From NCBI GenBank assembly GCA_963693365.1, contig CAVNZM010000012.1, positions 868,001 through 932,000 of the forward strand: 64,000 nt of DNA, given 5' to 3'. Made by a program: the position numbers and the translations under genes. This DNA is from Amoebidium appalachense (Eukaryota; Protista; Ichthyosporea). Shown in pieces: positions 3,430-64,000 of this stretch (position 1 is the stretch's first letter; the number at the start of each line of letters is the position of its first letter). The notes under the pieces are model-generated. The model was given only the letters and a program-made list of their open reading frames with translations, did not search any database and was not told the DNA's origin.

Positions 3430-4447
3430 GGGAGGGGAGGGGGGAGGGAAGGTCGGGTGGCTAACTAAGGGAAAGAGGGGGAAAAAGGAGTGGGGCAGGG
3501 CGGGGGGGGGGGGGGGGGGGGGGGGGGGGACGTGTGGGTATATGCGTTTGTGTGCCTTGGCGGTAGGGGTGACGGTGGAGGTGGTGGTGGTTTTCCTTCT
3601 TTCTTTTTTTTTTTCTTTTTCTTTTTTTTTTTTTTTTTTGGGGGGGGGGGGGGGAGGGAGGAGAAGAGAGAAATTTGGAAGACAATAAAGCAACATATGG
3701 GGAGTTCTTTTTGCTCCTTCGTATCCCTCTGCTCTATTAGACAGAGGACTATGGTCCTACCCTCCCCCCCTCCCCCTCTTCTCCGAAGGGACAGGAATAA
3801 CAAAAATAACACCCATGTGGTATTCATTTGAAGCACATGTGCCAAAAGCGTGGCAAAAGTGAGCACGGAGAATAAAAAAGGAAATAGTGTATAGAAACGG
3901 CATGCACCTTCAGACATCCGTTAAGGCTTGCACAGTGGAGTGCAGCAAGGTAGAATTGCCTTGTGGAATGCACATTTAGTGATGCAGCGCCCCAAAAAAT
4001 TTGCAGTACCAAAAAACTGACGGTCTCTACAGTCACTATTATCCGCTCCAAAAACTTCTTGCATGCATTTTTACTTGTAAAAGTCAAAACCGTGCTCGAC
4101 TCCAATAGATCCAGAAAAATCCAAAAGGCGCATACCTTGAGAGCCACACCGATGTTGGCCAGTATGAGCGCCAGGATGACGAGATTGAACGCAAAGTTTT
4201 CGAAGCCAGTTTGAAGCAAATGCAAGTGCCGGGAACAACGACGAGTAACCCATTGTAGGAGTTCCCTAGCCGCAGAAGAAACAATGAGAGTGACGATCGC
4301 CGAACCAGCAAGAATGGAGAGGTTCTCAACATCCTGTAAGATCTCTAATTTCGGGGTTTCGGTGCCATGGGCTGCGCAGGAACATGGGAGCAAGCACAAG
4401 GGTAGCCATAGCGCAATTTTAGAAGAAATCAATCTTGGATATTGCAT
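1653..4447 (-). CDS. Unknown multi-exon protein: signal peptide and several hydrophobic segments, then a Pro/Tyr-rich cytoplasmic tail
   Basis: ORF 4447-3824 starts with an ATG and a signal-like segment (LWLPLCLLPCSCAA) followed by TM-like stretches. Exon ~3230-3023 ends at a GTGAGT donor that joins in phase (AK-R-FRSQTK) to the CAG acceptor at 2127 of the last exon (stop at 1653). The junction between exon 1 and exon 2 could not be phased. Confidence 0.5.
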
Positions 4448-4889
4448 CTTCGCCGAACAAACAAAAATAAGTGAAAAGATTGATATCGAGCAACGACGTG
4501 TTCCCTGCTAAGTCCTTCTGCCTTCTACGTGCTACGTCTTATATGGCTGAAGATGCCTCTCCTTTTTTTTTAAAAAAAAACTTCTCGTCCGGTCAGCAGG
4601 AGCCACTGAAAACGCCCGCTTCCAACCTAGCCAAGATCACTTTCTTCAGACAGTGGCTGGTTGATGCCACACACAGCACATGCAGCGTCTCGATGATCTG
4701 GCATGGGCCCCAAGTAAGCCCTTAGAACAAACTACAGGTGAACGGTGGATGTAATCCTAAACCAAAAACTTACTGTCTTGTGTAACAGCGAATAAGCATA
4801 TCCACCTAAAAACATAGAAAACGTTTGTGTGTGGCAGTAACGATAGTACCATTAGCATGCACATTTGTTAACTTTCAAAGTTTCGCTGA

Positions 4890-5200
4890 GGCAAAATGAT
4901 GACGTCACATTGCTGTCTAAATATGAATATGTTTTTGATTGGCCCCTACGGGAGAGCGCGGGAATAAACTTGGCGACATACCGCCATGGAAAATGTAAAA
5001 GACACCAATAGAAAGTAGCTTTACAAATGAAACATTTTTAATTCGGACATGAGTATTTTATTTATTCAATCAAATGACTGTTACAAAAACTGCTTGGCGC
5101 GCTTTTGGGCAACAGCTTCGAAAAGACTCGGCATCGTTTTGTCTTTGGCGCACAGCGGCTGTCACGTGAACGTGTTTGTTTTGCACAAACACAGAGTAAA
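4890..5200. promoter_or_regulatory. Putative bidirectional promoter between the divergent membrane-protein gene and ISWI
   Basis: Repeat-free spacer with TGACGTCA (CRE/ATF, 4900-4907), ATTGG/CCAAT boxes (~4938, ~5005) and GTCACGTGA (E-box, 5161-5169). Confidence 0.35.
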
Positions 5201-5303
5201 ATAGAGAGAAAGTTGTTTATTTTCTCTACATAAGGCGGTAGTTTAGGTTATAGAGACAACTCTTTTGTTCTGGTACGCTTTACGCACAAACACTCGGACG
5301 AAG

Positions 5304-20237
<14,934 letters not shown>

Positions 20238-23662: not shown

Positions 23663-24787
23663 CTACTGGTGGCATTTCTGTATGTGCTTCTTCAAGTGGC
23701 CACTCTGCGTAAACCTGTCACCACATCCAGGGTGGGTGCAGGCATAGGGTTTCTCGCCCGTGTGTGTGCGCACGTGTCTGTTAAGGTGAGTCCTTATGGC
23801 AAACCCTCTCGTGCACCCTTCAAAATGACATTCATATGGCTTCTCACCCGTATGCATGCGCTGATGACTCACCAACGTACCCTTTAGAGCAAAAGACTTC
23901 TTACAGCCTGGATAATGGCACACAAACGGCTTTTCCCCCGTATGCACTCGCTGGTGGCTTTTTAAATCACCTGCTTGAGCGAACCTTGAGGTACAGCCGG
24001 CATAGGGGCAAGCATGCGGCTTTTCCCCGGTGTGAGTTCTCCGGTGTCTGTTGAGCGCAGAAGACGTAAGGAAATTCTGCCTGCAGTTTGCATAGGTGCA
24101 ACAGAAGGGTTTGTCACCAGTGTGCCTGCGGTGATGCATATCCAAGGTGTTTTTGTGGCTAAAACTCTTGCGGCAATCTGGATATCGGCAGGTAAAACGC
24201 CGTTCCCCCGTGTGCGTTCGTTCGTGCCTGGTCATGTGCGCTGTGTTTGCCGTGGTATAGCCACACCCGTACCTGCACTCACACTTTGCCCTTGCCCTAG
24301 CACTTTTAACAACCCCGCCCATCCTGCCTCTGTGTATTTTTTCACCTCCCTCCCGCTTTTTTTTGACACTTGTCGGCACTTTCTCCTCCACGAAGTCTTT
24401 TGTTGCTTGTCTGCTTGAACGCTCCGGTTTTGTTCTTTGTGCATCTCCCCGCAACCTACACGAGTGTGCGTGTTCTTGGATAGGTACGTCTGCATCACTT
24501 CCATCTAAAACCTCTTGGTTGATTGCGTGTCTTAATTGTGGTCTGCGTCTGAGGGGATGTGCCGGGATAACGTGGCTGAGGGAGTAAGGCGCACATGTTG
24601 CATCCCTACCACACACCGGCTCTTGTTTGACCACCGGTTTGAACTGTGGAATGCGTCTGAGAGGTTGGTCCGGAGGCTGGCCAAGGCATGGGTTGGTTTG
24701 TGCCATTGTTGTTTCTGGCTCGAGGTTTACGTGTAGGTGGCAAACATTGGTGGGTGGGTAAAAGGGCGTGTGTGAGGTGGTGGCCAT
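23663..24787 (-). CDS. Intronless C2H2 zinc finger protein with 7 tandem fingers
   Basis: Seven C-x3/4-C...H-x3/4-H units joined by TGEKP-type linkers. The first in-frame ATG is at 24787; the track start at 24859 is a GTG. Confidence 0.92.
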
Positions 24788-25315
24788 GGTGGTTGCTTGA
24801 CCCGCACACGATGCACGCGAACATGTGTTATCAGGAGTGTGTCTTAATGCGGCTTGCACAAATGCTTGTGTTTGTTGGGAAAGTGACTAGCTAGCCTACG
24901 TAAACGTAACTATTATCATGAACAAGCAGACGGTGAGGCCGGGCAAAAAAAAAAGATGAGTCCCTCTGAGCCCTCACTGAGTCCGGCCGCGTGCATTGCT
25001 TTTGGTTTGGGGGGAAAAAGATTGACCAATCCGTGAAGTGCTAAAAATCCATATATGGTTATGTAAACAAAGCAATAGCCATATATGGTTACATTCTTCA
25101 AATTCCTCAACAACGCTAACACTTGCCAGTGCTCATGCTCTTGCTCTGCAACAGAGGTGAGCGAGAGTTTTTTTTCCTCCTTTTTTTGGGCTTCGTTTTT
25201 TTTCTGCGCTGGATCGGATTGCCGAAGTTAAAAATTACGACGTTCTCGTTTTTTTTCCTGTCCTTTTTTCCCTTTGCAAACCGCACATACCGCACCAGCC
25301 AACACACCCTCCAAC

Positions 25316-31606
<6,291 letters not shown>

Positions 31607-33129: not shown

Positions 33130-34007
33130 CTAATCGATGGTGACGTCAACAAATAGCTGGTCGTCCTTGATGAACTGCCTTTCGCCGTCACTCATGTCTG
33201 CCCGCGTCAGGAACTTGCCCCAACCAAACCCGTTGCTCTGCACACTGCTCTCCTCAGTGGGGCGCCCGACATCCTCAAAGTGCAGCCGTGTATTCTCTTG
33301 GGTGAGGGGGTTCAAGGTCTTGCTCACACTCCGAGCACCCTCGCCTCTCTGGTCGACGAGCGTGAATGTGACTTTCTTGTTGAATGGCCAGGTGAGGGCA
33401 TCGTCAAACATGCCGGGACGCAGGACAAAGAACACGGACACGTTGCCTGCATACGCCTCGCGATCGCCATTGAAGTAGATCCACATGCGGAAGCAGTACC
33501 CGCCCGACGAGAAGTTGTACAGGTCCGGGCCGGTGATACCTCGCGCGTTCACGGCATTGTCAAAGGCCGTGCGGACGTTCTTAAGCACCCAGCGGGTGGT
33601 GTTGTTGTGGTTGGCCCGAATCTGGTAGAGCATGTCGTCACGGAACCGGGTGGCCCGGGCATCGGCGTTGGTCAGTCTGATGGCTGTCTCCGTGAGGGTG
33701 CGCTCCATCTCGGCCATGCGACGGCCCATCTCTTCCATCTGATAAGCGGGAACAGGTTAGACACGGTTTGCATGCGAAAAATGGTTTTTATAACCCGAAT
33801 GTTAGCGAAATGGCTGTGGGTTTGCAGACAGATATCCAGAAGAATGTTGATTGAGTGGAAAGTAAATAGAGAGTGTATGTCTGTGTGTGCGTGCGCGCGC
33901 GGGAGGGGGGGGGGGGGGGGGGTATTTCTTTCTCTTTTCAAATGATTTTATTTTTATTTTTATGGAGAGATAGGAGGAGGGAAGGGGGAGGGGGGGGGGG
34001 AGGGGGG

Positions 34008-34993: not shown

Positions 34994-36048
34994 CCACCAC
35001 CACCACCCATCCACCCGCCCACCCACAAACCAATCCCCTCCCACCTCCCCACCTTTCCCCCCTCCCCATAATTTTTGTTTCTGTTCACAACTTTGTTGCG
35101 CTTTGTGGGGTATTTTTCAGCCCAAAACACACCTTGACATTCAGGTGGCACAAGTCGCACTCCTGGACTCTGTGTGTGCAAGCAACCTCGTGGGCTTCGA
35201 GGTCCTCCCCTCTGCCTGTGAAGTCACAGCCCATGTGCTTACACCGTGCAACACGGTGTGGGCACGTTTTTTCATGTTGGTCCACAGCTGCCATCAAGAG
35301 AATTTGGGTGCACCCGAACTGGGCATATTGACACTGCAGCTCGAGCTTCTCATACAAGCAATTAAACATTCTCGAGGGCTTTCTGAGCTGGGCACTCTGC
35401 AGGGTCTCGCGGTCGATGGGGCATGTTGACCTGAAAGGTGGAAACAACTGCTGGTTAGCACAAATGTGAACAGGGTAAAAAGGCTGAAATCCACACCTGG
35501 TAGTAGAAACGGCAAGGGATATTTGGAATAGGACAATCTCTTCTCCTCAAGCTAACACAACTGTCCTTTATGAGAGATGCATTTGGCTTTTGCTGTATCG
35601 TATTTCGTTCACCTGTTCGAAAGGAAAAGGGAAATTTTGCTTTTGCCTTTTTGTCATTTTTTAAACATGTTTGCATACTTTGGCTGTGCTATTGTGGATA
35701 ATAATGCACAGCAGCAGCCCACAAAACGTGACCCATGCATAGAAGAATTCGAAGCGAATTGAGAACGTAAAATAAATGAGAAGATTTCGAAATTTTTCTT
35801 GGATTTTCTGCGGCTGCTTCGATAATGGAGAAAGAAAATCATGGAAAATCGAATGTGGATACACACCTTGCCTCTAGCCACTTGTGGATGCACGTAGAGC
35901 AGAAGTAGTGGTCACATGGTGTGCAAAGAGGGTCTCGGAGAACCTCAGAGCATATTGAGCAAATGAACTCGTTTACAAAGCTGTTTTTGTCAACAAAACG
36001 ACGAGTCTCGTAGCCTGAAAGGGCATATCCGTTTGTGGTAGGAGCCAT
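33130..36048 (-). CDS. TRAF-type protein: C3HC4 RING, TRAF zinc fingers, coiled coil and MATH/TRAF-C domain; 4 exons
   Basis: Exons 36048-35867, 35430-35133, 34399-34175 and 33738-33130 are in phase. RING: CSIC...PCDHYFCSTC...CPIDR. Zinc fingers: HEKTCPHRVARCKHMGC, CPDSVIPCPVSGC. MATH: GYCFRMWIYFNG, DDALTWPFNKKVTFTLVDQ, GFGWGKF, FIKDDQLFV. Confidence 0.92.
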
Positions 36049-41098: not shown

Positions 41099-46403
<5,305 letters not shown>

Positions 46404-47363
46404 TCTTACTTGGAAGAAAAGATAGTAAGAACGGGAAAAAAAAAAGTTGGACTTGAAACGAAGATGATTGTAATTATAGGAAGGCTGGCCCGGGTACCAT
46501 ATCAGGAGCGGGCAATTTTTGAATTCTCCCTCCCCGGCCCCGCCGGGGAAAATTTGAGGTTTTTGGACCTCAAAGAAGTCAAATCCTGCAAAATCCACTA
46601 CCGGGAGGCCAAAAAGGGTGATTTTACAAAAAAGGAGGGACATACATGAAAAAGAGAAAATGGGCGAGTTCAGTGGGCTGCCGATAAGTATATCTCGTGC
46701 TGGGCCGGTATACATGCTGCCGTGGTTGCTGCTGTAGACGGCAGTATGGCATCGCATGTGTCACGTGACCTGCACGTGAATGCGACCATGTGCAGGCACT
46801 GAGTCTAGGGGGATTTGTATGTGTGTTTTGGAGCACCGACAAGGCAGAGCCAGGGTGAGGGATGTGTAAACATGGAGTTTAGGGAGATCGTGCTGCTATT
46901 GTAACATGTGCACAAAACAGCCACGTGCACCGGCACACTCCGGTGTACAGAACAATAATATGCACATGCGTCACTGTAATATCATGTATGCGCATGCCGC
47001 ACAAGGTTTAGGAGACCACCACAGTATATACTATTTTCTTTTGGTTGATATCCATGTAGGAATGGTGTGTTGCAGTTGTCATGATCAGCCTGAGGCAGGC
47101 ACGTGCACTCACTGAAACACTAGAACTCATGAATAAAAAATACATTCGCTAAAAACGGCAAGGTAAATTTGGGGCCAAGCTATTATTTCCCCCTTTTAAA
47201 CGTTTTTTTAGCTCCAAGAACTTCGACGCCAAAATTTCTATATTTGGCCATCGTATATGATAATGAACACGTGTACTTAAATTAAAGTAGTTATATAAAT
47301 ATGAGCGGCCCGTTACAAATACAGTGACGAAAAACAGTGACCCACGAGCAGTTTTTCTTTCTA

Positions 47364-48834: not shown

Positions 48835-49137
48835 CACTGGGTGCGCTCGCTGGGGATTAGTTTTTTGGCACGCTGTTGACTTTATCGTGTGTTTATTATT
48901 TGCTATTTATTGGCCAGCGGCCAACATTTAAAAATATACTATATACCTAAAAATAGATACTGACTACGGCCAGCAGACATTATACACCTTCCAGGACACA
49001 TTAACACCAATAGTCTAACACACCATACTCTCGATCACAAAGAATTCCTAACAAACAGAGAAAAGTGCAAAGGCTCTGTACTATTACTCAGATTCTAAAT
49101 TTTAATTCTTTACAGTAAACTTCGGAATGAAAGCTAG

Positions 49138-49171
<34 letters not shown>

Positions 49172-50928
49172 CCCCTAACATGACTGTACGAAGAACAGGT
49201 ATAACTTGAAGCACTACAACACATATGAGATCCGTTACATTGGTGTACATTCCAATATTAGACACTAGTTTGGCTACTCTGACTACTCTGAGATCCTGAT
49301 TGGCTGCCTGCAGACTTGCGGCCACGATTACTTTGCTTTCGATCGTGCCATTGCAGCTGCGTCTCTCCAGCAGGTGGCAACGCCAGGCCCAGCACAGCAG
49401 ATGCACGAGAAGGGGGTGGGAACTGCCCACCAGCCGAGGGCTGGCCCACATGGCCCAAGTAAGGATGGGGACCGTGCTGCGGCAGTAGCCCAGGCATGGG
49501 GAAGGCAGGGCCGGGCTGAGGCGGCATGATGCCCCACGGTGGGGGCCAGCCATGTGGGTGGTGCGGGCCTGGATGGGGTGCAGGGGGCATGTGCGGCACA
49601 TGGCCCTGCTGCATGTCAAGCGCGGGTGCTGGTGGCATGGCATCCTGATTGGCTGCAACCCAACGTGGGCAGCTCTTGGCCCGATTGGAGCCGGGGCAGC
49701 CCTTGCCCTGGCGGCCACACGTCTTGCAGGTCTTGGGGGCTCTCTGGGGTGGCTGCATAGGAGGGGGCACCGGCAAATCCATCTGCAGGGGCCCCTCAGG
49801 GCCAATGTTGCGATGCTTTTTGCCCACTAGCATGGGCAAGGGCCGCTCACGCTGCGCCCCTGCATCGACACCGTCTGGAACAGGGAGGGGTGGCAAGGGG
49901 GCAGGCCGTATGGTTGCTGGCACAGCGTCTGCCCTCTCCTCGCGCATACGCTTGCGGTGATCTGCCAGGCCCTCGTGTGTGGAGCGCTGTGCATGTGCCG
50001 TCTGCCAGGTCTTCCACTTGTCGAAATGCTTCTTGATGTAGGCCGCATCCTTCATGTAGATTCCCCCAGCCACAGAGGCAGCCTTGTTGAAGTCTTGGGC
50101 CAAAGCCTCGAACAGCTGGCCGTTGGGCTTTGCATGTGCCTTGTAGGTGCCCAGGAGCAGCGTGCTGAATAGCTTGCGCTCCTGAGGGGTAAGCACCGGA
50201 AGGAAGGGGATGGCCACATGTTGCTTCTGCGCCAGGAACTTGTAGTCGCCCCTCAGTGCAGGGTCCGGCTGTGGTGCACCACGCGCCACCTGGTTGCCCC
50301 CCCCCATGGCAGCACCGTCACCCTCCTCGACCTCACAGTCCTCTGGCCCGCCCATCACGCCATTGGCTGCAGGCTCGATGTTATCAGACGGAGGTGGGGG
50401 TGCGGGCACCGCAACTGGCTCCTGCGCCGGGGCATTGGCCACACAGGAGAGCGGGGCAAAGTTGAAGTACTCCTCCGGTAGCTTGTAGCAGCCTACGGGT
50501 ACCCACTGGGGGTCGAGGTGATGGCCGTACAGCATCAGCGCCAGTGCCTCCATGTCGTCAACAATCCAGGGGCTGTAGTGGGGGGGCCCCGATGCCTGGC
50601 CCAGGCGGTTGCGGTAGTGTGCACGCAGGTTGTGGCGGTGGCGCCTATTGGACATGGTGGCGTCCAGCAGGCGCAGCGACATGCGTGTGGCCCCAAAGTG
50701 GGTGGCCAGGGGGTTGTGCACTGCCCCCTCCACCTCGTTGGTGCCCCGGATGCAGCGGTAGCGCATGAGCCCATCTGCGTCGGCAGTGGTCTCGTAGTAG
50801 AGGGGCAGGCCGGGGGGGTCCGACAGACAGCCATTTTGGGCGTGTTCGAGCAGCGACTGTGGGGGCACAAGCAAACATCAGAGAGATGGGTGGGTGGTGG
50901 TGGTGGTAGTGTGTGTGTATGTGTGTGT

Positions 50929-50986
<58 letters not shown>

Positions 50987-51058
50987 TGGGGTTGCTAAGG
51001 AAAAAAACGAGCAGGGAAAGGCAAAAAACAACTGGCTAGGCAGCAAGGGCCGTGCGGG

Positions 51059-51113
<55 letters not shown>

Positions 51114-51697
51114 TGTGTGTGTGTGTATGTTTGGGGGGGGGGGGGGGGGGGGGGAGGCTAGGGTGTGCGTGTGTGTGCAGATGAACCAAGGATGACAAAT
51201 AAGCGAAGAATCTTTTCTGTGGTGGTGGAGTTGTTGGGCGCCTGCAGGGGGGGGGGGGGGGGGGGGGGGATGTTGCCTCGAGTCTTTCAAAGCCATCCTT
51301 CTTGAACAGAGGCTTGCCATCCGGTCCGGGCGGCACATCCTTGTAGGTGTTTTTGAACTCCACCAGCCGCGAGACCAGCGTGTATGGGTCGGGAATAACC
51401 CGCCGGATGCGCTCCATGAAGTAGCTCAGGTCGCCGCCCTTGAGCTCGGTTTCAATGTCGATGCCCTTCTGCTCCAGCACCCCCTGTGAGGCAGGATGCC
51501 AATATTAATTTACTACGCACACTGCAATTTGGGTTTGGTAGACTTTGATACCTGCCGTTATTGTAGGACCCCTCCCCTCCACCCCCCCCATCTTCTCCCC
51601 CAACACAAGTAAAAAATGCATGTGGCTATTTCCCCCCACAACCCTACATTATTTCTCTCTAGGCATATGAATAACCCCCACTCTCCTCCCCCCCCCC

Positions 51698-51748
<51 letters not shown>

Positions 51749-52793
51749 TTCCCCCCCCTCTCTCTGAGGCTCAGGCTCTCTCTCTTCCCTCAGAAGTTTT
51801 GTCGAAGGTGTGCATGGTTGTGGGTGGAATGGTGAGTGTGTGCTAACGAGTGTATGTGTGTGTGCGCGTCAGTCACGCATGTTGTTGTTGCCGTTTTTTT
51901 TATTTTTATTTTTTATTTTTTATTTTGGGGGGGGGGGGAGGGGGGGGGGGCACCTTCACATGTCCGTAATCCTCTTCATTCCACACAAATATTGCCTCGC
52001 TGAGTGCGCGTGCGTACTCAGCCCTGCGGGGGTGTGACTTGTACGTGCCGTCCGCCGTGTTTGCAATGGAGTGGAAGGCGTCATTCAGCACAGTCTGCCA
52101 CACCACCTCCCCAGGCGGTGCCTGGCCCAACATGCCCTCTCTGGGAGCTGCCTCGGGTCCCCCTGGGGCTGCCTCAAGGCCCCCCGGGGCTGCCTGGGGG
52201 TCCTGGGGGGGTGCCTGTGGGCCGGCAAGGGGTTGCTGCTGCTCGGCAGGGGGAGGACTGGCAGGGGGAGGGGCTGGGTCAGGGACCACCGGCACCTCGG
52301 CACCTGGGTCCGGTGGGGGCTGAATGGGCCGTAGCCACTGCAGGTGCACCATCAGCTCAAAGGGCGGCGGGCCCAGCTCTCCCAGGGTCTTGCCCTTGTC
52401 GGGGCCAAAGGGCACCTGCATGGCCGGCGACAGCACCTGATCCACCCGCACCACTGCATGCTTCTTGCCCACCTTCATGCCCCCCCAGCGCTCCGGCTGC
52501 ACAGCCAGCACCACCCCGGTGGCTGCTGCAGCATGTGGGCCCCGCCGGGGCACAATCTCAACCCCTTCACCGAGTGCCTTTGCATGAAGCCGCGCTGCAT
52601 GTCATAGAGGGAAGCAAAAAACTCAGCCAAAAAGCCACAGCACCAACGTTTTTCTCTTCGCTCCACAAAAATCAAATGCATATTCCTTAGCAACCCCCTT
52701 CCCCCCCCCCCCCCCCCCCCCTTCTCCCTCCCCCCCCCCCCCCTCTCCCAGTGCCCAGCTTGTGTGGCACTTGCACGTGTTAACAGTGCTATA

Positions 52794-52824
<31 letters not shown>

Positions 52825-53069
52825 CCACCACCACCACCACCACCAATCACCCCCTCCTTTGATAGCCACCCGACACCCAGCATAACACAACTGGAACACT
52901 GGCCCATGTGGTCAGCCACCCCCCCCCCCCCCCCCCCCCCCCTCCCCCCCCTCCCCCTCCCCTCTCCTCTGGGGGGCCCACAATCTTTCTATATCTGGCA
53001 TAAGCACATAAGCACTGGGGCAAAAAGCAGGTGGGATACACACCTGACAGGTTTGGCCTATCGACCACG

Positions 53070-53600
53070 GCCGAGTAGACCTGCAGGGACGCATATGCAT
53101 CAAGGGCAGCGTAGGTGGCCTGCACCTCTGATAGCGGCTCGTGCCAGTTGGAGCATCGAACAAGTGCCGGCTTGGGCAGCTTCTTGCCTATGACCTGGGC
53201 AGTGATGTCGGCCAAGCCCCGGGCCGCAGAGGTGATAGCTGCACGGGCATAGCAGAACCGGCCCAGCTCCAGATAGCTGGCCACAGGGGTGCCGTAGTCC
53301 TTGTTGAGGTGGGCCGAGTCCGTGCCGATCTGCTTGCCCACCTTGATGATGCTGGGGTCCCTAAGCAGCGCAATCAGCTCGTCCACCAGCCGCGCGGGCG
53401 GGCTGTGGTTGGGGCCCATGCGTGCCAAGTGGAAGATGTACACGGCCCGTGCGGTGGCAATCTGCAGCGTGCAAACCTTGGACCGCGCCTGGCCCACCCG
53501 ATAGACCCACTCGCAGTCCAGCCCCACCACGCGGTGCTGCTGCCCCTCCAGGTCGGCACGAATGGCCGCTGTAGCCACCACCGCCCCCTGGCAGTCGGTG
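53070..53600 (-). other. DEDDy 3'-5' exonuclease domain (WRN-exo/EXD2/RNase D-like)
   Basis: ExoI VVGLDCEW, LQIAT, LLRDPSIIKVG, ExoII IGTD, VRCSNWHEPLSEVQATYAALDA (ExoIII). All catalytic positions appear to be present. Confidence 0.9.
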
Positions 53601-53964
53601 TACACCGGCTTAGGGTAGTTGGCCGGCAGCTCCAGCCCAGGCAGACCGTCCGTCACGCTTACCAGCGCAGCCTCGTTCAGACGGACGGGGCATTTTGGCC
53701 GGGCTAGGGTTGGAAACATGCGCTCAACAAACGCCCGGTCTTGGCAGCACCGATCTGTGTAGAAGAAGGCCGGGCCCTTGCTGTTGAGCGCCGCCGTGGT
53801 GGCAGAGATGCGCTGGATCACGGGCTCAATCTCCTGGTGGCTGCAGTCCCGTGTAAATACCTGCGCCCGGATCTCTGGGGTGCCGCACTGTGTGAGAGGG
53901 CATCTCCGAGCAGCCATGCATGTTCTAGCTTCCCTTACCACATGGCCCTTCACGAGACTTCAGT

Positions 53965-54262
53965 GCCCACACAATCCTTTCCCCCTCCCTCCCCCCAAAC
54001 CCATGTGCCCACATACTTTCCCCTCCCTCTCCCCCAAAACCCTTCCCCCGCCTTCCCCCCAAACCCATGTGCCCACATACTTTCCCCAGGCCTCCCTTTC
54101 CCCCAAAATCTTCCCCCCCCCTCCCCCCCTAAACCCATGTACCTACAATCCTTCCCCCTTCCTCCCCCTAAACCCTTGTGATCACAATCCTTTCCCCCTC
54201 TCTGCCTTCCCCCCAAACCCATGTGCCCACGATCCTTCCCCACTCCCCCTCCCCCCAAACCA
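53965..54262 (+). repeat. Degenerate minisatellite CCCCCAAACCCATGTGCCCAC... (about 6 copies) in a transposase-gene intron
   Basis: AAACCCATGT-like cores recur at ~53997, 54061, 54132, 54171, 54215 and 54256. Confidence 0.8.
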
Positions 54263-54438
54263 TGGGACAGCCCTCCATATGGCACCTACTGTCCCCCCCC
54301 CCCCCCCCCCACCCCACCCCGGGCCTCTTGCCCTCTCTACCTTCAACCCCGACGGTGGTGTCTCTCCCCCCCCCCCCCCCCCCCCCCTGCATCCCTTGCA
54401 ATCACTGGCCCCTACTCCCATTCTGCTTGGCAGAAGCT

Positions 54439-54524
<86 letters not shown>

Positions 54525-55214
54525 ATTCCCCGCCAAAAGAAAGCTCCACCCCAGCCCACCCCAATCTCTACCCAGCAAAAACACATACACACATATCTGG
54601 AGCTTCCTAGTTTTTGCTCGACAGGGCAAGAATTGTCCCCAAAACCCACATACTACAAACCTCTACTCACAGTGTGCCACCTCATTAAATGTGGAGCCTA
54701 AGAGATTTAAAGGCCCTAGAGGGGGGAGGGGGGGAGGGGGGGGAGGGGGGCGTGTGTGTGTGTGTGTGTGTGGGGGGGGGGGGTGGGCGTGTGTGGGGGG
54801 GGGGGGGAGGGGGGAAGGGGGCCTGGGGGAGAGTGGGGGGAGGGGGGAGAAGAGGAGGGACCACACACCGCCAAGCTCGTTTACACAAGTCCATAGGCCT
54901 CGGTACAGAGGCTCCCCATTGATGCCGGTGAGCTTCCCAATTTGGAAGGTGTGGTCGGCCTTGAGCACGTTGTTTACGGGCTTGAGCTGCGTGTCCAGGC
55001 TCTGGTACTTTGCCGTGCGGTCGCTGAACTCAGTATACACGGCACTCAGGTATTTGCCTGAACCCCAAGTACTGTTAGAACTCCACCACCCTCCCATCAG
55101 GACCATCCCCCCCATTCCCTCTAGTCCCTCGTGTTCATCTCACCTCTCTGTATTTTCGTAAGTCTGTATGGCTTTTCCCATCTCAAAAACGCTACACACC
55201 CATCTCCGGCCGTT

Positions 55215-55250
<36 letters not shown>

Positions 55251-55428
55251 CCCCCGCCTCCCGGCGCGCGCAAACCCTCCAAGTCATTGCACCAACTTTC
55301 ACCTTCTTTCCCCTTTGTGCCCCATCTGCAGTTTGTCCCCTGCACGTCCGTTTGCCCTTCCCCCCACACCCTCCTGCCACTACTATAATAACCATTAAGT
55401 ACCGCCACCAAGATCCAGTCTACCACCA

Positions 55429-55484
<56 letters not shown>

Positions 55485-55636
55485 CCGCTCTCCACCTCCT
55501 TTCCCCCAACACACACAGACACACATGCGCACACCCACCATCTAATTTCAGGCATAACAGTTCTCCACGATTTCCCAAGCACACTCACTGGTACATGGAC
55601 CGTTATGCTTTCACCCCTCTGATGATCCCTCTGCCC

Positions 55637-55667
<31 letters not shown>

Positions 55668-55751
55668 ACCACCACCACCACCACCACCACCATGACTGAT
55701 TGCCACCACCACCACCTAATCCATCACCATGTCCCCCCTCCCCCCCCCCCC

Positions 55752-55782
<31 letters not shown>

Positions 55783-58700
55783 ACGGACCCACAAGTACAC
55801 GCACACTCACAGGCGCACATCCACCACCACACATCCACCACCACCATAATAGAAACTTATTGACCACACTTCCAAAACCCATTTCCAAGTCCCCCCCCCC
55901 CCCCTAAAAAAAAAAATAAAAAATAATAAAACAAAACCCTACCAAGCCAACCCAAAAAATGCCCAAGCACGTGCATACAAAACAATGGGGACCATTTACA
56001 CACCCAAAATGCAGTGCACACTTGCCTGAAGGCACATGTCCAGCGTAACCATTTTTGTCACCAAACGCCGAGAACTTAGCCGCCTGCTCCTCTGGGGGAA
56101 GTTCTGTCAGGCGCTGGTCGTGGGGGCGGAAATCGTTACGCTTTTTGAGTTCATACTTGGTCCAATGCAGCGCCCTCGAGTAATACAGGAGCCGCTGCTC
56201 GTCGTATCGCTGCTTGTGGAGCTCCGAGAGGAGGGTGGCAAAGGCGTTTGGGCCCACACCTTTGTCTGCCAGTGCACGCAACAATGTTACCACCTTTAGG
56301 TCGAGCCCACTGCGGTGGCTAAGGTAGGCCGGAAACTGATCACGCATGAAGAGTGGAAGGCGTTTAATTGTCTGGGGGTTTGTGCCGGCAAAGTTTTTTT
56401 TGCATGTGTCACAAAAGTACCGGGCCGTGATAATGTAGTAGCAGCTGTCAAAGTCGATAACACGCCGTCCTACGGGGTTGCTCATGAACCCATTGCGAGA
56501 AGTACGGTGTGGGTTGGGGTGGTTGTGGGGGTCCACGTAGTGATCATCGAAGGGGCACGGCACCATGAAACCGGGAGACAACCTTTCCGGAAGCCAGGCA
56601 AAACATCTGGGTTTGTAGAAAGGCGCTGGATCGCCCCCAAATTTAAAGCCTATAATGGGAGGTGGAAGATGCCACCCCACAGGCGTCTTCTCATCTTTGA
56701 GACTCTCTTTCACTGTGTGCAGGTGCGACTTGATTGTTTCGCCCGCCGCGTCAGAAAACTCCTCTCCACCGTCATCCCCGTCCGTATTATCTTCTCCCTC
56801 TTCCTCCCCTTCATCCTCGTCTACCCGGTACGCATCTGCTGCTGCATTTAGCAAAGGTTCCTCGTCGGGTTGCACCTGTATGTCTGGTGGGTGTGGAGCA
56901 GGGGCCCGATCCATTTCTCTTGGTAACGAATGGACGCTACCTGCCTCAACTACACGGGCCCTTATGTCGGCGGCCTTAGATAGAGGGGGCTGTTCGGGTT
57001 GTACGTTTACGTTTAGTTCCTGCAAAACAGCTTTGTTTGCCGTCCCAAAACCTGCAAAGTTCGCTAAAGGCTGAACAAATGCAGCATCTTTTTTTTTTTG
57101 CGCCCAGCTCCCTCCCTAGCTCCGCCTGTTTTATGCCCAGGGCGCTGTGTTGTGCCCTTAGGGCAGCCTGGCTTCATTTTAAACACTTGGGGCCTGGCCC
57201 CCTGCCCCCCTAGTGCGACTACGTTACCGCAAACATTCCCGTATTCCAGTGTGCTCGGCAATGCTGCTCATGGCCTTCCCGGACTGGTTGTGACCAGTAA
57301 AGAGCGCGCCAATTCCTGACCGCCGCCTACAGCAGTGTATGATCTGTTATCCATATTCGGCAAAAGGGGTCTTGCCCAACCAATGGCTTGAATCCTTGTA
57401 ACTTTGCTTTATCCATATAAGGTTAGCTGAACACCCCCCTCCAATCATACCCCCCCCTTCTCTCTAGTAGTAGCTCCTGGCATGCCGCACCCCCCCCCTT
57501 CTGTCCTGACTCCCTAGGATGTCACCTCAACACCGTCCGGCAAATTTGAGCTGACGATATCAAGAAGCGATTGGGCAAACCTGTGAGCCTAGGTTCTGAA
57601 AATCATAAAATGTCGTTCAATTTGTCGAATGTCATGCATTCTTTAAACAACACTGAGCAAAAATGCAATAAGGAAGAAACAAGTGCTGATTAAAACCCAA
57701 TAGTAAAGCAAATTGCAACATTCCATTGTAAAATTATTATCCTGTGATCTGCTGATATCCAATCAGCACGCGAATGTTTACGAGACTATTGTCCAGCACT
57801 CAGTATTTGCCTTTTGGCAATCTTGTCGGTCATAGTTTTCACCTGCCGTCACCCTCCCTCATTTTACCGTGTGATGGGCGTGTCTGTGCTCGCCACGTTG
57901 TTTGTACAAATAGGGAAAAGTAGTAGTTTAGAATAGAAACTACACGTGTTTCGTGGCGAGAATAGTGTCTAGCTGTTGACACTCCTGTTAGTTTAGGTAT
58001 ATTATAAGCCAACTCGCGTAAGCCTAGGTAGGAGCTGAATTGTAGAGTGGGTAGCCATTTTGGGCAGAAAATCAAAGTGGGCCCGAACTTGCTGCGAAAA
58101 TCCACGTGCATATGTAAAACGAGGTAAGTTACTTGTGTTTTTTTTGTCATTTTCACTAAACTGAATGCCTCACAGCTCTAGAAAGGCTGATTGATACACA
58201 AGTCACATGTGTATTCGTACTGCTCTGTTTCTACTGGCCTTGTATCGGGGACGTTGCTTTCGTGTTAGGTGATGGTTTCGTTTTCTGTACTCTTGTCTTA
58301 ACAACGGAGTAGTTTGTAAGCCAAGTTTCTCTTTTCTAGTTTACCCACCACATTATAAATTATGTTTGGTTGTGTGTTAGGCAATGACGCTGTTGGAAAA
58401 GTCGGGAAAGTGTGTAGCAGGGGAGTTGGCTGGTATTGTGTCCGACCACATGTGTGGGAAGTGGTTAAAAATACACGCACGGGCGACCCTGTGCACGTTT
58501 GTTGTAGAACGTTTAGTAAGCTACGGTACCTCTTGATTATAATTGAAAGCAACCAGGAGAAAACGTTTTGATTTATTTTTAGGGGAGTGTGGCCGTACAA
58601 GGGTCAAATTAAAGGTGAATGTGCCACATTTGAACTTAAAAGAACATGTTCATGTTCAAGTTAGTATCGTGGTGCCAAAATTTCTCGATCTATTCCCTCT

Positions 58701-60516: not shown

Positions 60517-64000
<3,484 letters not shown>

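Follow-up and report, generated by a model that had tools for sequence, protein, structure and literature searches.

A transcribed Amoebidium transposase gene with a WRN-type exonuclease nested in its DDE core, probably of an exonuclease-bearing Dada transposon

We analyzed a minus-strand gene in a stretch of 64,000 nucleotides from Amoebidium appalachense (contig CAVNZM010000012.1, positions 868,001 to 932,000 of the forward strand; hereafter the window), which encodes a DDE transposase with a second nuclease, a DEDDy 3'-5' exonuclease, inside its catalytic core. This spliced and transcribed gene is very probably the transposase gene of a likely multi-copy, exonuclease-bearing Dada transposon, in which the DDE core would move the element by cut and paste, and 3' ends would be trimmed by the exonuclease. 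The evidence consists of the exon structure, a transcript, the domain order, the conserved catalytic residues of both nucleases and the many flanks found at one end of the element. The exons and the domains they encode are as follows; residue numbers here and below refer to P0009, a transcript-derived protein of 1538 amino acids.

56026..57177, minus strand: exon 1, with the basic tip, the acidic linker and the DUF6729 region with the putative N-terminal zinc-finger ligands; GC donor
56150..56716, minus strand: DUF6729 (PF20499), Pfam E 1.5e-18, holding C207, H212, C255 and C258, the putative Dada N-terminal zinc finger (C-H-C-C)
54869..55057, minus strand: exon 2, with the first catalytic Asp D418 (KADHTF), codon start 54956
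53044..53874, minus strand: exon 3, with the second catalytic Asp D487 (codon start 53755) and the exonuclease domain
53069..53545, minus strand: DEDDy 3'-5' exonuclease (PF01612), with D566, E568, D632, Y701 and D705 intact
51954..52594, minus strand: exon 4, with a small beta-rich domain, a disordered Pro-rich linker and the DxxH motif D895/H898 (codon start 52082)
51277..51483, minus strand: exon 5, with the helical insertion domain; GC donor
49258..50856, minus strand: exon 6, with SDPPG, the catalytic Glu E1049 (codon start 50730), a C-C-C-C motif near 49728, a Pro-rich tail and the stop

P0009 is identical to the six-exon model from residue 6 of the model onwards, all five junctions included. 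It thereby matches the six in-phase exons and roughly 1540 codons that had been proposed in a preliminary description made from the letters alone. All motifs named there are present in the order given, and its positions for the catalytic residues (D54955, D53754 and E50729) are the middle bases of the three catalytic codons. All five introns end in AG; the donors are GC in introns 1 and 5 and GT in the others. The transcript protein agrees with the GC donors at 56025 and 51276 on the minus strand, which are found in two of five introns. Exon 3, used as a protein query, retrieved a 100% identical transcript-derived protein, whose cluster has 18 members; among the 15 listed, 14 with EukProt accessions are named Amoebidium parasiticum. 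Contigs of X10 and X14, runs that we guessed to be RNA and of which none is on record as such, skip 449 and 968 bases, which correspond exactly to introns 3 and 1, respectively. Both introns are kept in contigs of the DNA runs X1 and X4. A single X14 contig spans exons 1, 2 and 3 and the start of exon 4. Because this contig and the transcript protein join the exons, the exonuclease exon belongs to the same transcript and not to a separate one, which the preliminary description had named as a finding that would speak against its model.

Several transcript isoforms are shorter than P0009. P0007, P0010, P0011, P0013, P0017 and P0018 stop a little beyond exon 4 and so do not reach the catalytic Glu; P0014 extends only just past exon 1. 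Alternative splicing, chimeric assembly or copies with internal deletions may account for them. In addition, a 5-residue indel in the Pro-rich linker differs among isoforms.

At the N-terminal tip, the assembly departs from the transcripts at a single homopolymer.

57089..57099, minus strand: run of 11 A, leaving the first ~29 codons out of frame in the assembly; 9 A in three runs

As written in the assembly, the frame from the ATG at 57177 reaches a stop at codon 38, since the 11 A of this run put the GGAREGAGRKKK tip out of frame with the rest. Two A's are missing in three of the four runs compared (X10, X14 and X4), and no such row was seen in X1. The transcript proteins read through the region in frame, and P0009 carries the MKPG...GGAREGAGRKKK tip in frame. 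The basic tip that had been described is found in the transcript proteins, and the in-phase joining is broken in the assembly by the A run, which reflects a miscounted homopolymer in the assembly or, alternatively, a genuine frameshift of this copy.

Pfam analysis of the exon pieces identified DUF6729 in exon 1, at the E value listed above, and DNA_pol_A_exo1 in exon 3 (E 2.7e-15). The other five of the seven pieces had no match, and neither the exons nor P0009 matched MULE or Mutator. An earlier guess that the N-terminus belongs to DUF6729 was thus borne out, as was the expected DNA_pol_A_exo1 match; no match appeared for MULE, which had been named alongside them for checking. The spacing between the first and the second catalytic Asp is 69 residues, and 408 residues separate the second Asp from DxxH, in line with the approximately 400 estimated before. 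Past the exonuclease lies the small beta-rich domain (residues 735-815, 52350-52570), followed by the disordered Pro-rich linker (about 52145-52350).

The predicted fold points in the same direction. An AlphaFold model of residues 171-1124 reached a mean predicted local distance difference test score (pLDDT) of 84.3 and a predicted template modelling score of 0.64, with pLDDT values below 50 only in the Pro-rich linker and two short stretches. The top Foldseek match of the model was the WRN exonuclease (E 3.1e-14). WRN also led the wide structural search with Z 27.7 (root-mean-square deviation (rmsd) 1.7, 184 aligned, 32% identity), followed by RNase D (Z 20.2) and Nibbler (Z 19.8), and Rrp6, EXD1 and Egalitarian were matched as well. 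The WRN exonuclease (PDB 2e6l, 2fbt) is thus the closest solved fold to the insert, which retains the DEDDy residues; in WRN, however, the exonuclease is joined to a RecQ helicase, whereas in the present gene a transposase surrounds it. Outside the exonuclease, the wide search returned the IS256 transposase ISCth4 (Z 15.0, rmsd 5.7, 322 aligned) over model range 19-924, that is, on both sides of the insertion, and foamy virus integrase (Z 10.0, model range 240-954). ISCth4 (PDB 6xg8), a structural relative of MuDR, was the best transposase fold match both to this model and to P0166, a relative from which the insert is absent (spacing of 12 between the second Asp and DxxH). ISCth4 differs from the query in being bacterial, in its 401 residues in the solved chain, in sharing 12% identity and in having no exonuclease insert. 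P0166 is fused to an SH3 protein and may represent a gene model that skipped the insert, and we used it solely as an insert-free fold. Its insert-free stretch (pLDDT 91.8) had ISCth4 on top (Foldseek E 2.1e-4; Z 14.5, rmsd 3.5, 261 aligned), followed by integrases, P element and Hermes. These models predict an RNase H-type transposase core, as the preliminary description had anticipated, which would fold shut across the insertion in the manner of IS256/ISCth4 and leave the exonuclease protruding as a domain of its own, ahead of the helical insertion domain. Overall, Pfam, conservation and fold agree with the earlier description, in which a C/DxxH-group DDE transposase carries an intact DEDDy exonuclease of the WRN type in the interval from the second Asp to DxxH.

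For the analysis of conservation, we took relatives from a full HMMER scan with residues 171-1124; word-index protein searches had given few. The scan yielded 4805 proteins at E<=0.001, 318 of them at E<=1e-30. The conservation set comprised 149 of the best 150 of these 4805 (P0001, the query's own cluster, was left out) and P0019; since the query itself includes the exonuclease domain, the set favors proteins that carry one. Among homologues with a residue in the respective column, the DDE residues were conserved in 129/130 (D418), 144/144 (D487) and 122/125 (E1049), and those of DxxH in 128/133 (D895) and 130/133 (H898). In the same alignment, the exonuclease residues were kept in 130/143 (D566), 132/144 (E568), 134/147 (D632), 138/145 (Y701) and 136/146 (D705). 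The whole set of D, D, DxxH and E was kept in 94 of the 150 homologues, 82 of which also kept the exonuclease D-E-D-Y-D. The small beta-rich domain was likewise found in 82 of the 94 complete homologues, at about 25% identity. In the 122 homologues with measurable spacing, the median distance between the second Asp and DxxH was 429. The N-terminal zinc-finger columns were conserved in 91/94 (C207) and 106/108 (C255) homologues; the second N-terminal zinc ligand, apparently His212 in the query, is His in 9/92 (query included) and Cys in 82/92. The C-terminal zinc-finger pattern was matched by 39 of 105 homologue tails, with Cys as third ligand in 33 and His in 6.

Hosts named among the 20 homologues that we looked up were Podochytrium, Phascolomyces, Amoeboaphelidium, Mycena, Paraphelidium, Apophysomyces, Ephemerocybe and Plasmodiophora. 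In the ESM Atlas, clusters combining DUF6729 and DNA_pol_A_exo1 scored 0.95 and 0.93, and MULE clusters scored only 0.75-0.77. A tree of 93 core sequences did not settle the position of the query (supports 0.06-0.42). A correlation between core and exonuclease distances (rho 0.40, 0/499 permutations) was set aside, as kinship alone accounts for rho. Locus searches with P0009 revealed no relatives among metagenome or viral contigs.

The gene lies in a repeated sequence with a discrete end, as judged by a sharp depth edge and several flanks at 57482-57500; the other end is bracketed only. The candidate element and its ends are listed here.

48839..57492, minus strand: candidate whole element, ~8.6 kb; one end observed at 57487-57500, the other placed by inference at 48839-48873 or slightly further out
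57486..57492, minus strand: GGGTGCG, 7 bp, at the observed terminus; candidate short terminal inverted repeat
48839..48845, plus strand: GGGTGCG, 7 bp, inverse of the motif at 57486-57492; candidate end

At 57490-57523, depth drops from thousands to 22, 37 and 159 in X4, X6 and X3, respectively. On single contigs at the 5' end, it amounts to 2680 compared to 22 in the flank (X4) and 4556 compared to 37 (X6), a difference of about 120-fold. Along the element, X4 depth is 1460-2873 on five exon or 3'-end contigs and 738 on one intron contig, again compared to 22 in the flank. Additionally, contigs pass into differing, unrelated sequence after 57482, 57487, 57495, 57498 and 57500. At the other end, a high-depth X4 contig begins at 48873, and an X1 contig extends to at least 48842. 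The 7-bp inverted pair is not above chance, given that a local alignment score at least as high was obtained in 830 of 1000 shuffles. Four flanks at the observed terminus (that of this copy and three contig ends, 57490-57498) start with a run of 6-9 C, which may mean that the element prefers homopolymers of G/C as targets or that its own end is rich in C.

These depth and flank data also bear on whether the gene is a domesticated one, i.e. a single-copy host gene that derives from a transposase and now serves as a DNA repair nuclease. Its five introns and its transcription would suit such a gene, no target duplication was found, and domesticated Dada genes are known in fish (PMC8869645). However, introns are normal for Dada elements (PMC3706591), and the depth at the 5' end is about 120 times that of the flank, with a sharp edge and several unrelated flanks. 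We therefore regard domestication as highly improbable and retain the transposon reading.

The architecture itself has a precedent. In 2013, Kojima and Jurka reported that in Dada-1_LB and Dada-2_LB from Laccaria bicolor and in Dada-1_ES from Ectocarpus siliculosus the second Asp and DxxH are separated by a DEDDy exonuclease (PMC3706591), so that the novelty claimed in the preliminary description, which had itself allowed for this outcome, does not hold. The feature is a member of the exonuclease-bearing Dada group and neither a target-specific Dada nor a new architecture. With these three elements it shares a DEDDy domain that separates the second Asp from DxxH and has its four acidic residues intact, the DDE triad, putative N- and C-terminal zinc-finger motifs, the introns that Dada elements normally carry, and, for the candidate element, a length within the 4.7-11 kb of Dada (PMC3706591). 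It differs from them in its putative zinc ligands, which are C-H-C-C and C-C-C-C here compared to CCCC and CCHC in Dada, in its host, which the name given to the matching transcript makes an ichthyosporean, a group absent from Table 1 of PMC3706591, and in that one terminus can be placed. The connection runs through P0053, a relative that carries a Dada-1_LB motif. The query matches P0053 at HMMER E 2.7e-69 with about 30% identity (26% over 970 columns by BLASTP), and about 98 of 162 positions of the P0053 exonuclease equal the Dada-1_LB row in Fig. S1 of PMC3706591, according to a hand count. The target-specific Dada elements (U6, U1, tRNA and 5S) also have a DDE core with DxxH and zinc fingers, and the first two Asp are 68 residues apart in Dada-U6_DR compared to 69 here (PMC3706591). 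They reside in small-RNA genes, generate 6-7 bp duplications and have no exonuclease reported in the part of that source considered here; the copy in the window, in contrast, is not in a small-RNA gene.

A second superfamily offers a partial parallel. KolobokD (PMC9587614) is likewise a DDE transposon of the C/DxxH group that encodes a 3'-5' exonuclease, for which a 3'-end degradation of DNA intermediates was proposed, but its exonuclease is of the DEDDh type (TREX/ERI1-like) and not of the WRN-like DEDDy type, and the passages considered do not locate it within the DDE core. In the ESM Atlas, clusters from molluscs and arthropods in which Mutator (PF20700), RNase_T and PML_C occur together scored 0.75-0.77; we note them as a lead only, and they may correspond to KolobokD elements. 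In our literature search, we found no paper naming DUF6729. PMC6431247 and PMC5718144 name DEDDy for retroelements only, PMC12730594 does not mention an exonuclease, and the main text of PMC11244446, on Amoebidium, does not name Dada.

Several observations weigh against an assignment to Dada as a multi-copy transposon with a functional exonuclease. Canonical Dada elements lack terminal inverted repeats, carry short sub-terminal ones and make 6-7 bp duplications (PMC3706591). Neither a small-RNA target nor a duplication was found at the copy in the window. The copy lies outside small-RNA genes: the window holds 0 tRNA genes, and among 150 of the 176 Rfam rows none lies at either element end and none reaches its gathering score, with the limit that a split small-RNA gene could escape both tools. 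The 30-letter flanks of other copies differ from each other, their small-RNA content being judged by eye only. No target duplication was detected at the window's ends, where only poly-C matches and no GG..CC pair with a flank repeat were present. A search for a 6-7 bp duplication gave only a 5/6 match (GCACGC at 48868-73 and GCACCC at 57487-92), with the 3' end not fixed; Dada may, on the other hand, not always make duplications (PMC8869645). The link to Dada-1_LB leads through the exonuclease region of the intermediate P0053. Contig depth suggests a copy number of about 100, which is an estimate only, and the depth tool itself warns that contig depth is not copy number. In addition, this gene copy is frameshifted as assembled. 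Finally, 12 of the 94 complete cores are without an intact exonuclease (11 degenerate, 1 absent), and the domain is named in only three of the 36 Dada families in the portion of PMC3706591 drawn upon. By these two counts, the exonuclease is not essential for Dada transposition. The portion of the 2022 survey by Kojima (PMC8869645) used here, covering over 120 fish Dada families, does not mention an exonuclease either.

MuDR/Mutator-like and IS256 elements have terminal inverted repeats and a duplication of about 9 bp. Features of this kind emerged from a locus search with P0053, which recovered six metagenome loci, two of them with both ends visible.

L005, 7297-15457: element of 8161 bp that begins with GGTCGC and ends with GAGCC; imperfect inverted ends of 20 nt at 95%
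L003, 1322-7638: element of 6317 bp that begins with GGTCGC and ends with GAGCC; imperfect inverted ends of 32 nt at 81%

Both elements resemble Dada-1_LB and bear the exonuclease. In both, every DDE, DxxH and DEDDy residue is retained, the unspliced matches containing 5 (L005) and 1 (L003) stops, and both are flanked by a 9-bp repeat, which is exact in L005 (9/9) and matches at 8/9 positions in L003. None of the six loci contained a tRNA, and no snRNA, tRNA or 5S match was found in the four loci searched. These ends and duplications are unlike those given for canonical Dada in PMC3706591 and suggest a branch that chooses and joins its targets in another way than target-specific Dada. In our literature search, in which Repbase was not included, we found no paper on Dada elements with inverted ends and 9-bp duplications.

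The exonuclease-bearing proteins could accordingly form a sister lineage of Dada that works like MuDR/IS256 and is grouped with Dada by protein similarity alone. This alternative draws on the two two-ended loci among the six, on the missing tRNA and small-RNA matches and on the IS256-type transposase fold. It is set against the authors of the superfamily having filed exonuclease-bearing proteins under Dada (PMC3706591), and against the absence of a 9-bp duplication at the copy in the window; moreover, its evidence comes from two loci only, both of which are relatives of P0053. We consider it rather unlikely, although of all alternatives weighed here it is the one to be taken most seriously, and it alters the label more than the mechanism. 

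A perfect 28-bp inverted repeat in L005 was rejected as the ends of the Dada-like element, as it belongs to an outer element that hosts the Dada-like insertion. L005 contains two elements with perfect 28-bp inverted ends starting with (A)TACAGTG (7269-15712 and 4387-6016), which we take to be Tc1/mariner-like on account of their TA-CAGTG ends. The Dada-like element sits just inside the left end of the one at 7269-15712.

Regarding the mechanism of the exonuclease-bearing Dada transposon, the DDE core (D418, D487 and E1049) is predicted to excise and insert the element. Whether the inserted exonuclease trims 3' DNA ends at the breaks made by this core is, in our judgement, about evenly balanced; Kojima and Jurka proposed that Dada exonucleases process cleaved 3' ends (PMC3706591). 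In that case, 3' overhangs would be shortened on the donor flanks or the excised ends, which might favor a clean rejoining of the ends or a repair templated by the sister copy. In this reading, the exonuclease would be an accessory and not part of the core chemistry, again with about even confidence. We favor a DNA substrate because WRN is the best match and the position of the domain inside the core is fixed, and an accessory role because the exonuclease has decayed in 11 of the 94 complete cores and is absent from the descriptions of other Dada families in the sources considered.

The same transposase could alternatively direct its exonuclease at RNA, either host silencing RNAs or its own transcript, as a counter-defence. 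The fold class does include RNA enzymes, namely RNase D, Nibbler, Rrp6, EXD1 and Egalitarian, some members of the family do without the domain, and the isoforms P0007, P0011, P0013 and P0017 keep the exonuclease and end before the catalytic Glu. Yet the WRN exonuclease is clearly the best match by Z score and identity, and the shared site inside the core in 122 homologues suits an action at a DNA break. An RNA substrate thus seems improbable to us compared to the trimming of DNA ends.

About 380 bp from the element end, an RNA-covered piece on the plus strand (57877-58123) is interrupted by stops in each of the three frames and runs up to a GTAAGT donor; a host gene likely has its untranslated first exon here. 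A location of the element within a host coding intron was rejected on account of these stops and of a small candidate exon near 57518-57583 without RNA cover. Pieces of ordinary host genes lie at 23666-24886 (minus), 25232-25651 (plus), 33133-33756 (minus), 35088-35546 (minus), 62530-62988 (plus) and 6219-6659 (plus), and according to Pfam contain a C2H2 zinc-finger array, an FGGY kinase N-terminus, MATH with a nearby Sina zinc finger (TRAF-like), Kelch repeats and DBINO. The minus-strand open reading frames 46068-46760, 3827-4507 and 1656-2153, of 231, 227 and 166 codons, had no Pfam match.

As the architecture has been published since 2013 (PMC3706591), the gene does not open a new class. 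In the literature that we found, the role of the exonuclease is a one-line proposal, and this seemingly intact, transcribed, high-copy family could put it to the test. Our data also suggest that DUF6729 marks Dada transposases; if it does, many fungal and protist proteins annotated as '3'-5' exonuclease' or 'hypothetical' would be transposases. We further put forward, tentatively and with less than even confidence, that exonuclease-bearing Dada elements may form a widespread lineage of their own, without small-RNA targeting and with MuDR/IS256-like transposition, short GG..CC inverted ends and 9-bp duplications, in which the exonuclease would process the element's own breaks and DUF6729 would be the N-terminal zinc-finger region. 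The hosts of this possible lineage would include fungi, aphelids, Plasmodiophora, a brown alga and ichthyosporeans. If this is true, the high-copy, transcribed Amoebidium family would be a workable model in which to test a two-nuclease transposase for the first time.

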